Assembly (NCBI GenBank): GCA_951406725.2
Contig: OX597841.1
Coordinates: 29,129,251 to 29,193,250, forward strand
Reading direction: 5' to 3'
Source: Octopus vulgaris
Lineage: Eukaryota
Length of the DNA: 64,000 nt
A model generated the notes under the pieces. The model ran no database searches. It worked only from the letters and a program-made list of their open reading frames with translations, and had not been told where the DNA came from. The position numbers were made by a program, and so were the translations under genes. Shown one piece after another: positions 55,886 through 58,125 of this stretch (its first letter is position 1; the number at the start of each line of letters is the position of its first letter).

Positions 55886-56220
55886 CGCGCTCAAATGGTG
55901 TTTTTAATGTGCCACCTGCACAGGAGCCAGTCTAGCGGCACTGGCAATGAACTCACTCAAATATTTTTTCCTGTGCCAGTAAGGTGACACTGGTAACGAT
56001 CACGCTCGAATGGTGTTTTTTATGTGCCACCTGCACAGGAGCCAGTCCAGCAGCACTGGCAGCCGTTCAAGAATTTGGACCTGGAGATCTCCATTTCCGG
56101 CGACTTCGAGGGCCACCTCCCAGTGGTGTCGGGCATCAATGAAGAACCCTCAACTACAACAAGATGACCAAAGTTGTTTTTTTTCCAAGGTCTGGGGTCT
56201 CCCGCCCCTAACCCCTAGAC

Positions 56221-57811
56221 CAGTGCTTTTCAAACATTTTGCTGGAGCGGAACCCCAAGAAAACATTCCACTGGCTCAAGGAACCCCTGTGCAATAATTT
56301 AATTGTCTTATGCACACATATCTGCACAGGAGAATTAAAAATTACTGTCGATTTTAGCATTTTTGTAACTTCTTGTGGAACCCCTGGACTGTACTGGCGG
56401 AACCCTAAGGTTCCACGGAACCCTGGTTGAAAACCATTGAGTTAGACACAGTCAGTTAGACACTAGTTAGACACAGTCAGTTAGACACTAGTTAGACCAG
56501 TGCTTTTCAATCTTTTTGCTGGAGCAGAACCCCAAGAAGTTAGACACAGTCAGTTAGACACTAGTTAGACACAGTCATTTAGACACTAGTTAGACCAGTG
56601 CTTTTCAATCTTTTTGCTGGAGCGGAACCCCAAGAAGTTAGACACAGTCAGTTAGACACTAGTTAGACACTAGTTAGACCAGTGCTTTTCAATATTTTTG
56701 CTGGAGCGGAACCCCAAGGAAACATTCCACTGGCTCGGGGAACCCCTGTGCAATAATTTAATAGTCTTATGCACACATATCTGCACAGGAGAATTAAAAA
56801 TTACTGCCGATTTTAGCATTTTTATAACTTCTTGCAGAACCCTGGTTGAAAACCACTGAGTTAGACACAGTCAGTTAGACACTAGTTAGACCAGTGCTTT
56901 TCAATCTTTTTGCTGGAGCGGAACCCCAAGGAAACATTCCACTGGCTTGAGGAACCCCTGTGCAATAATTTAATTGTCTTAAGCACACATATCTGCACAG
57001 GAGAATTAAAAATTACTGCCGATTTTAGCATTTTTGTAACTTCTTGCGGAACCCCTGGACTTTACTGGCAGAACCCTAAGGTTCCGAGGAACCCTGGTTG
57101 AAAACCACTGAGTTAGACACAGTCAGTTAGACACTAGTTAGACCAGTGCTTTTCAATCTTTTTGCTGGAGCAGAACCCCAAGGAAACACTCCACTGGCTC
57201 GGGGAACCCCTGTGCAATAATTTAATAGTCTTATGCACACATATCTGCACAGGAGAATTAAAAATTACTGTCGATTTTAGTAGTTTTGTAACTTCTTGCG
57301 GAACCCCTGGACTGTACTGGCGGAACCCTGGTTGAAAACCACTGAGTTAGACACAGTCAGTTAGACACTAGTTAGACCAGTGCTTTTCAATCTTTTGCTG
57401 GAGCGGAACCCCAAGGAAACATTCCACTGGCTCGAGGAACCCCTGTGCAACAATTTAATAGTCTTATGCACACATATCTGCACAGGAGAATTAAAAATTA
57501 CTGACGATTTTAGCAGTTTTGTAACTTCTTGCGGAACCCCTGCACTGTACTGGCGGAACCCTGGTTGAAAACCACTGAGTTAGACACAGTCAGTTAAACA
57601 CTAGTTAGACCAGTGCTTTTCAATCTTTTTGCTGGAGTGAAACCCCAAGAAAACATTGCACTGGCTCAAGGAACCCCTGTGCAATAATTTAATAGTCTTA
57701 TGCACACATATCTGCACAGGAGACTTAAAAATTACTGCCGATTTTAGCATTTTTGTAACTTCTTGAGGAACCCCTGGACTGTACTGGCGGAACCCTGGTT
57801 GAAAACCACTG
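56221..57811. mobile_element. Tandem array of hAT-type MITEs (6 near-complete ~180-219-bp copies plus 2 left-end stubs) inside one 8-bp TSD
   Basis: TIR CAGTG(C/G)TTTTCAA; outer TSD CCCTAGAC at 56213-56220 and 57812-57819. Copies at 56221-56439, 56680-56858, 56892-57110, 57144-57344, 57378-57577 and 57611-57811. Confidence 0.9.
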
Positions 57812-58125
57812 CCCTAGACCATCACCTAATCACCCTTACCCATCTTGTTGCTTAACAACAACAACAGCAGCACTGGCAATGACCTCGCTCGAATATTTTT
57901 TCATGTGCCACTGGCACAAGTGCCAGTAAGGCGACGCTGGTAACGATCATGCTCGAATGGTGCTTTTTACGTGCCGCCGGCAAGGAATCTACTCAGCGTG
58001 CCATGTGTGCACATGAACATGAAGCCACTGGCTTAAAGCTTGTACGCTGCGGCACAGAAACAAACGCTTGTGATCCTCCACTAAAAGCTGTTCTCCTCCA
58101 TACCACATGTTGTATTACTCTCATA

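Follow-up and report, generated by a model that had tools for sequence, protein, structure and literature searches.

A single linker junction shared by tandem hAT-type MITE arrays along one octopus chromosome may have spread by repair copying

Several systems resembling the array studied here have been described. The Buster/Charlie hAT element TcBuster produces 8-bp TSDs and has the target consensus nnnTAnnn (PMC3499496), as does the family considered here, which has short TIRs and non-coding units of 179-219 bp. Tandem TE dimers from which satellites are seeded are known from Drosophila P, hobo and R1 (McGurk and Barbash, PMC5932611); they include DNA transposons arranged head to tail, with target-site DNA at the junction and similar expansion by unequal exchange. 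In Ac/Ds macrotransposons, two hAT elements in direct orientation can move the intervening DNA (PMC3260210). Homology-guided copying into a resident TIR element, as proposed below, is seen both in P-element gap repair and targeted transposition, where tandem or replacement copies can be gained at a resident element (PMC3887531), and in gap-filling Pack-TIRs, which show cis bias and microhomology (PMC8277862). In flies, HR strongly favours templates on the same chromosome, in data that set a nearby template against the homolog at short range and do not concern Mb-scale ectopic copies (PMC6829126). Finally, MITEs have served as a source of tandem repeats, as here, in the cases of miDNA4 and Xstir (review, PMC9659126).

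The window, that is the whole 64-kb stretch of DNA analysed (64,000 nucleotides), forms the end of contig C28. At 56213-57819 it holds an array in which seven linkers connect six full MITE units and two 5' fragments of 40 bp, the whole enclosed by a CCCTAGAC TSD; the lengths of units and linkers are given in order in Table 1. On the plus strand of the window CCCTAGAC occurs only at 56213-56220 and 57812-57819. A second 8-mer, AGTTAGAC, has 24 exact matches in the window, all 24 within the array, and lies directly 5' of all seven inner left ends and directly 3' of all five inner right ends. The initial annotation, made from this DNA alone, had every inner TIR abutting AGTTAGAC. This stands for the ends just listed, but the two fragments lack a right TIR, and the internal 8-mers at 56577 and 57592 carry one substitution each. 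Elsewhere in the window there are four more tandem arrays (711-1778, 9344-11032, 25001-26124 and 33426-35626, with periods of 277, 112, 175 and 127 bp), which presumably resemble pieces of interspersed repeats; tandem amplification is frequent in this region.

Table 1. Features of the MITE array and its host repeat (positions within the window)
Feature	Position	Strand	Basis or remark
Host dispersed repeat, left part	56050..56212	.	approximate boundary
Left TSD CCCTAGAC	56213..56220	+	array parse, paralogous empty sites
MITE unit 1, 219 bp, family-type A14, 4/6 H1 states; likely resident element	56221..56439	+	
58-bp linker (33-bp linker with 25-bp internal duplication)	56440..56497	+	
40-bp 5' MITE fragment, T14, without right TIR	56498..56537	+	
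58-bp linker	56538..56595	+	
40-bp 5' MITE fragment, T14, without right TIR	56596..56635	+	
44-bp linker, one additional 11-bp step	56636..56679	+	
MITE unit, 179 bp, T14	56680..56858	+	
33-bp linker	56859..56891	+	
MITE unit, 219 bp, T14	56892..57110	+	
33-bp linker	57111..57143	+	
MITE unit, 201 bp, T14; ends CAGTGCTTTTCAA / TTGAAAACCACTG	57144..57344	+	
33-bp linker	57345..57377	+	
MITE unit, 200 bp, T14	57378..57577	+	
33-bp linker, single substitution	57578..57610	+	
Last MITE unit, 201 bp, T14	57611..57811	+	
Right TSD CCCTAGAC	57812..57819	+	array parse, paralogous empty sites
Host dispersed repeat, right part	57820..57860	.	approximate boundary

The outer TSD was assessed against other copies of the host repeat, a search for which gave 1,576 candidates, of which 40 were scored and 30 loci listed. 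At the 30 listed loci, all 33 copies hold a single 8-mer at the corresponding position (29 exact, 4 with one mismatch). Because these paralogous empty sites hold one 8-mer, the outer TSD of the window array is real. With CCCTAGAC on both sides, this confirms that the 1.6-kb array lies between one 8-bp TSD, as had been claimed, and a copy of the MITE family sits at CCCTAGAC in the dispersed host repeat. Several elements and foreign DNA are bracketed by this single TSD, in the manner of a macrotransposon; a single TSD around a train is expected from composite transposition and from repair copying alike. The inner and outer 8-mers differ, the junction in the window array holding no target-site DNA of its own locus of the kind that marks a double-insertion dimer.

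The units belong to a family of about 2,300 copies, the exact 3' end being matched 2,324 times in the genome. These high-copy units are non-coding; 12 of the first 13 bases match between their ends, and TA occupies positions 4-5 of the target in 47 of the 50 loci with at most one TSD mismatch. In its 8-bp TSD, target preference, short TIRs and short non-coding unit, the element works like a Buster/Charlie-type hAT MITE, in agreement with the initial annotation as far as hAT goes. Three long or truncated copies were inspected and contained no parent element. Dispersed monomers have ordinary TSDs and carry no linker; the linker is foreign to the window locus, as had been claimed. All states of haplotype H1 are found together in monomers on C25, C6 and C11, and all those of H2 in monomers on C19 and C23. 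Haplotype sharing within chromosomes was non-significant in a permutation test on 55 monomers (p=0.155; 4 sites without a full unit omitted), leaving general local hopping of monomers unsupported. C28 holds 3 of 30 copies in one TSD-picked sample and no more than 23 of the 123 copies of a second sample, and density is uneven among chromosomes of similar size (C25 16, C23 10, C24 1 and C21 1 with the two samples pooled). At three monomers (L263, L323 and L330) and at L072 (C28:5.338 Mb) the left and right 8-mers are unmatched, a pattern suggestive of ectopic crossovers that joined MITE copies from separate sites. Versions of the MITE without the linker, tandem or internally duplicated, occur at L314 (C28:25.96 Mb), L181 and L316, where three left ends are combined with one right end and units of 519 and 481 bp are found.

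A genome-wide search for the 33-bp linker, which the initial annotation had proposed, gave 75 exact matches, 74 on C28 and one on C24, compared with none for a reversed-pattern control. Exact patterns for the 33-mer, the junction and the gap, followed by inspection of the fetched loci, defined 42 linker loci among the matches listed, 41 of them on C28, the chromosome of the window, and one on C24. With a family share of 0.19 and the loci treated as independent, a count of 41 of 42 on C28 (among the matches listed) has p=9e-29. This confinement is special to the linker, because monomer haplotypes cross chromosomes. The 33-bp linker is a lineage marker, and the same linker marks about 40 further loci on C28, beyond what one window shows. 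The C28 loci fall into two zones, at 2.4-11.4 and 22.7-29.2 Mb. Trains contain 2-10 units with linker variants of 8-58 bp, and amplification of MITE plus linker in place was correctly anticipated. Almost every linker locus among the matches listed has its own TSD; 32 of the 35 scored combine a TSD of at most one mismatch with intact outer ends. L069 and L100 represent one event, because they have the same TSD and the same flanks. A junction match on C7 (L084) holds no parsed unit.

Other trains extend this picture. Two loci (L062 and L063, C28:24.54 and 24.84 Mb) carry a second linker of 165 bp with CCCTAGAC at its start and end, and their arrays have TSDs in three layers. The 165-bp linker is flank DNA of a further locus, the source of which was not found. 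Three trains (L040, L071 and L091, C28:3.6-3.9 Mb) lie in or adjoin zinc-finger repeats; we take their flanks to be C2H2 zinc-finger coding sequence. At ten loci on C19, C27, C29, C30 and C34 (L074, L132, L152, L156, L157, L158, L164, L166, L177 and L181) the same MITE forms trains whose linkers are (TA)n or (CA)n microsatellites; these trains are independent, most of them within a clean non-microsatellite TSD. Dimers at L179 and L180 (C34:48 kb and 168 kb) have a common 53-bp unique linker and different TSDs and are a second, small lineage confined to one contig. At two loci a duplicated local flank serves as linker.

As to where the 33-bp linker came from, there is a good probability that it began as native TAGAC-minisatellite DNA separating two neighbouring insertions, and L067 (C28, 27.69 Mb; 27,690,925) is the probable site. 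This locus lies within a degenerate 8-bp TAGAC minisatellite: its 160 bp of flank contain nine TAGAC motifs, where none of the other 40 rows has more than three, and its right flank starts with the linker 8-mer. It alone has a 35-bp linker, which resembles the right flank; the units after this linker carry A14, the base typical of the family. The locus would be explained by two insertions into the TAGAC repeat, spaced 27 bp from each other, with later loss of one left-TSD base, and such a double-insertion dimer is plausible. The reverse is possible, L067 being a recipient train whose linker was converted by its flank. The contigs of 8 public runs (24 listed) yielded no empty or monomer allele at L067, where the unique right flank is covered only in run X1 among the 8, and gaps of this kind prove nothing. 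The initial annotation had read the linker differently, as a pair of hAT excision footprints from MITEs repeatedly inserted at one AGTTAGAC site. Its fillers do contain the triplets GTC and ACT, each the reverse complement of one end of the 8-mer, and Buster-type elements leave short complementary insertions (PMC3499496, available part). Linkers of 8, 19 and 22 bp occur as well, but these are simple deletions between the three 8-mers. When hairpin products are enumerated under the canonical one-base-offset model, 5 and 3 untemplated bases remain; the hairpin model also predicts loss of a terminal TSD base, whereas all three linker 8-mers are whole, and hAT footprint palindromes centre on the complement of the element-adjacent base (PMC5873905, available part). 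The linker contains no palindrome centred in this way. TSD-palindrome-TSD is absent from every other train examined, those trains using simple-repeat linkers (ten have microsatellites) or flank linkers, and the flanks of L067 are TAGAC-rich with ACTAGT, AGTCAG and TGGTAGAC motifs. Monomers with a AGTTAGAC TSD exist on C1, C3, C18 and C23, and the proposed search for a donor MITE flanked by AGTTAGAC returned four (L081, L082, L083 and L085), which were rejected as donors when their flanks failed to rebuild the linker. Three of them (L081, L083 and L085, on C1, C3 and C18) represent independent insertion events in one dispersed repeat, all at a single AGTTAGAC-like position that is a recurrent target. 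The footprint reading is weakened accordingly and we consider it improbable; a footprint origin would be compatible with either mode of linker spread.

How the junction reached so many loci is a separate matter, on which we lean slightly towards copying into resident MITEs by same-chromosome template switching, followed by expansion in place. The linker looks younger than the insertions that hold it. Using the first 33-bp linker per locus, divergence was 0.7% (8 substitutions in 1,122 bases, 34 loci), against 3.0% for TSDs (17/560, 35 loci; p=4e-4), with seven loci left out whose ends were unmatched, missing or duplicate, three TSD pairs corrected by hand, and exact search patterns that slightly favour unmutated linkers. 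The difference persists with TSDs of at most one mismatch only (p=0.02), those with 2 mismatches possibly reflecting crossovers instead of age, and with the middle 17 linker bases, which lie outside both junction patterns (p=0.009). TSD divergence in monomers is 2.4-2.8%, close to that of the arrays. A macrotransposon would have cargo as old as its TSD and clonal outer ends, which is not what was found, although this result is statistical and biased toward clean linkers. Units were compared by variant tables instead of a tree, as they are mosaic, in a set of 39 loci that leaves out L065, L100 and L072. At 32 of 39 loci the later units carry the variant T14, 14 bp past the linker; it is present in the first unit at 2 of 39 and in 1 of 55 monomers, and no other variant is common to more than 9 loci. 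A rarer variant occurs in both the first and the last unit at 15 of the 39 loci, compared with 5.2% between loci. Three or more H1 states occur in 5 of 55 monomers and likewise in 3 of 39 first units, for which independent mutation would give 0.09; the first units of trains mirror the family-wide haplotype mix. In the window array the units carry distinct mutations, and the first has four of the six H1 states. Cis bias is evident in the 41 of 42 loci on C28 (among the matches listed), and microhomology is seen at one return point: in L091 a 217-bp piece is flank DNA of the L071 train, which lies 56 kb away, and after this piece the sequence rejoins a MITE 3' end at an imperfect microhomology inside the TSD of L091, a single case that may be read as a gap-filling signature. 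Length variants of 179, 201 and 219 bp recur within arrays and were uninformative as markers.

In the alternative put forward in the initial annotation, the array came to this site by jumping as one composite unit. More generally, a hAT transposase would have acted on the outer TIRs of a dimer (unit, linker and T14 unit) and moved it, almost always to another place on C28, with expansion and homogenisation following later. Macrotransposition by two hAT ends is known in maize (PMC3260210, available part), and the TSDs and intact outer ends of 32 of 35 scored loci are as it predicts. T14 could weaken the inner left end and so favour movement as a unit. As evidence against jumping, T14 begins only 2 of 39 trains, a point softened by first-unit starts making up only 110 of 309 possible multi-unit end pairs. 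Stand-alone T14 elements show no C28 enrichment (2/28); the 26 off C28, against 10 for a G14 control (p=0.011), were either shed from trains or arose by mutation. The trains do cluster, with pairs 1 kb and 3 kb apart, and a 400-kb stretch of C28 has trains at 7 of its 7 sites while 400 kb of C27 and C29 contain no copies. This suggests local proliferation and counts against copying, but the stretch was picked post hoc and about 5 sites per Mb are implied on C25, so that the density test is weak. Mutation load beyond position 14 is equal at inner and outer ends (about 2%), which also runs counter to copying and fits composite jumping; showing no difference, it was dropped as a discriminator. 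Sharing within loci is expected from turnover after a composite insertion too, and conversion in the opposite direction could have brought H1 states into the trains. Against this, composite jumping demands about 90% or more reinsertion on the same chromosome, where Tol2 shows about 15% linkage and Ac over half within 1.7 Mb (PMC2753552, available part), and monomer haplotypes of the same family cross chromosomes. With linkers less diverged than TSDs and four of six H1 states in unit 1, the jump of this array as one unit is doubtful. Whole-array jumping is possible and we judge it rather unlikely; repair copying is likely the better explanation, and a mixture of both processes is possible. That the train or its copy number is a misassembly of a repeat we regard as highly improbable. 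The window does end where the contig ends, but the 42 linker loci among the matches listed have different flanks and TSDs, the window units differ by mutation, and contigs of public run X1, perhaps not independent of the assembly, cover a linker junction and the right junction of L067.

Under repair copying, events at the window locus would have started from a MITE already resident at CCCTAGAC in the host repeat, within its 8-bp TSD. The linker would have arisen as native TAGAC-minisatellite DNA between neighbouring insertions, probably those of L067. Repair synthesis within the resident MITE may then have switched to a train on the same chromosome, copied end, linker and start, and returned, converting a monomer into a dimer inside the old TSD. 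Unequal exchange and slippage would have produced the 2-10 units and the 8-58 bp linker variants, whose structure is directly visible. Each recipient of the copied junction would become a new donor. On this basis we tentatively suggest, with a little less than even confidence, a self-propagating junction: the 33-bp linker and adjoining MITE ends would spread in a homing-like manner along one chromosome, turning monomers into dimers by cis-biased repair, with recipients becoming donors and some forty nascent satellites established over 27 Mb, the trains themselves not transposing.

One TSD around a multi-element array is normally taken as proof of composite transposition, and here it may mislead; copying and jumping can be separated simply by comparing how far linkers and TSDs have diverged. 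The linker is a natural barcode. What it records is either long-range choice of same-chromosome templates in the germ line of an animal, or local hopping of a hAT element to an extent far beyond that measured in the laboratory. Trains of this kind offer a way for satellites of transposon origin to become specific to one chromosome. In the literature searched, no MITE train with a shared linker and restricted to a single chromosome was found, supplements lying outside that search, and the available part of the octopus repeat annotation (PMC13282606) leaves this array type undescribed, although the accompanying TE library may include the family.

Set against the known systems, as far as the available parts of the sources describe them, the locus differs from each. 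Buster/Charlie MITEs (PMC3499496) share the features named above, but the MITE here forms trains with a common foreign linker. Drosophila dimers form and expand each at their own site (PMC5932611), whereas here one junction is present at 42 sites among the matches listed, with different outer TSDs and 41 of them on one chromosome. The P-element and Pack-TIR cases (PMC3887531, PMC8277862) are laboratory events or mostly single-copy captures, while the copied piece here would be the junction of an element with itself. Ac and Tol2 favour the donor chromosome (PMC2753552), but the 41 of 42 loci over 27 Mb seen here (among the matches listed) far exceed the linkage of about 15% for Tol2. In miDNA4 and Xstir the repeat lies inside one MITE (PMC9659126), and here the repeat unit consists of a whole MITE together with a linker. 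The component parts are known; what is new is one junction common to 42 trains among the matches listed and confined, save for one of them, to a single chromosome.
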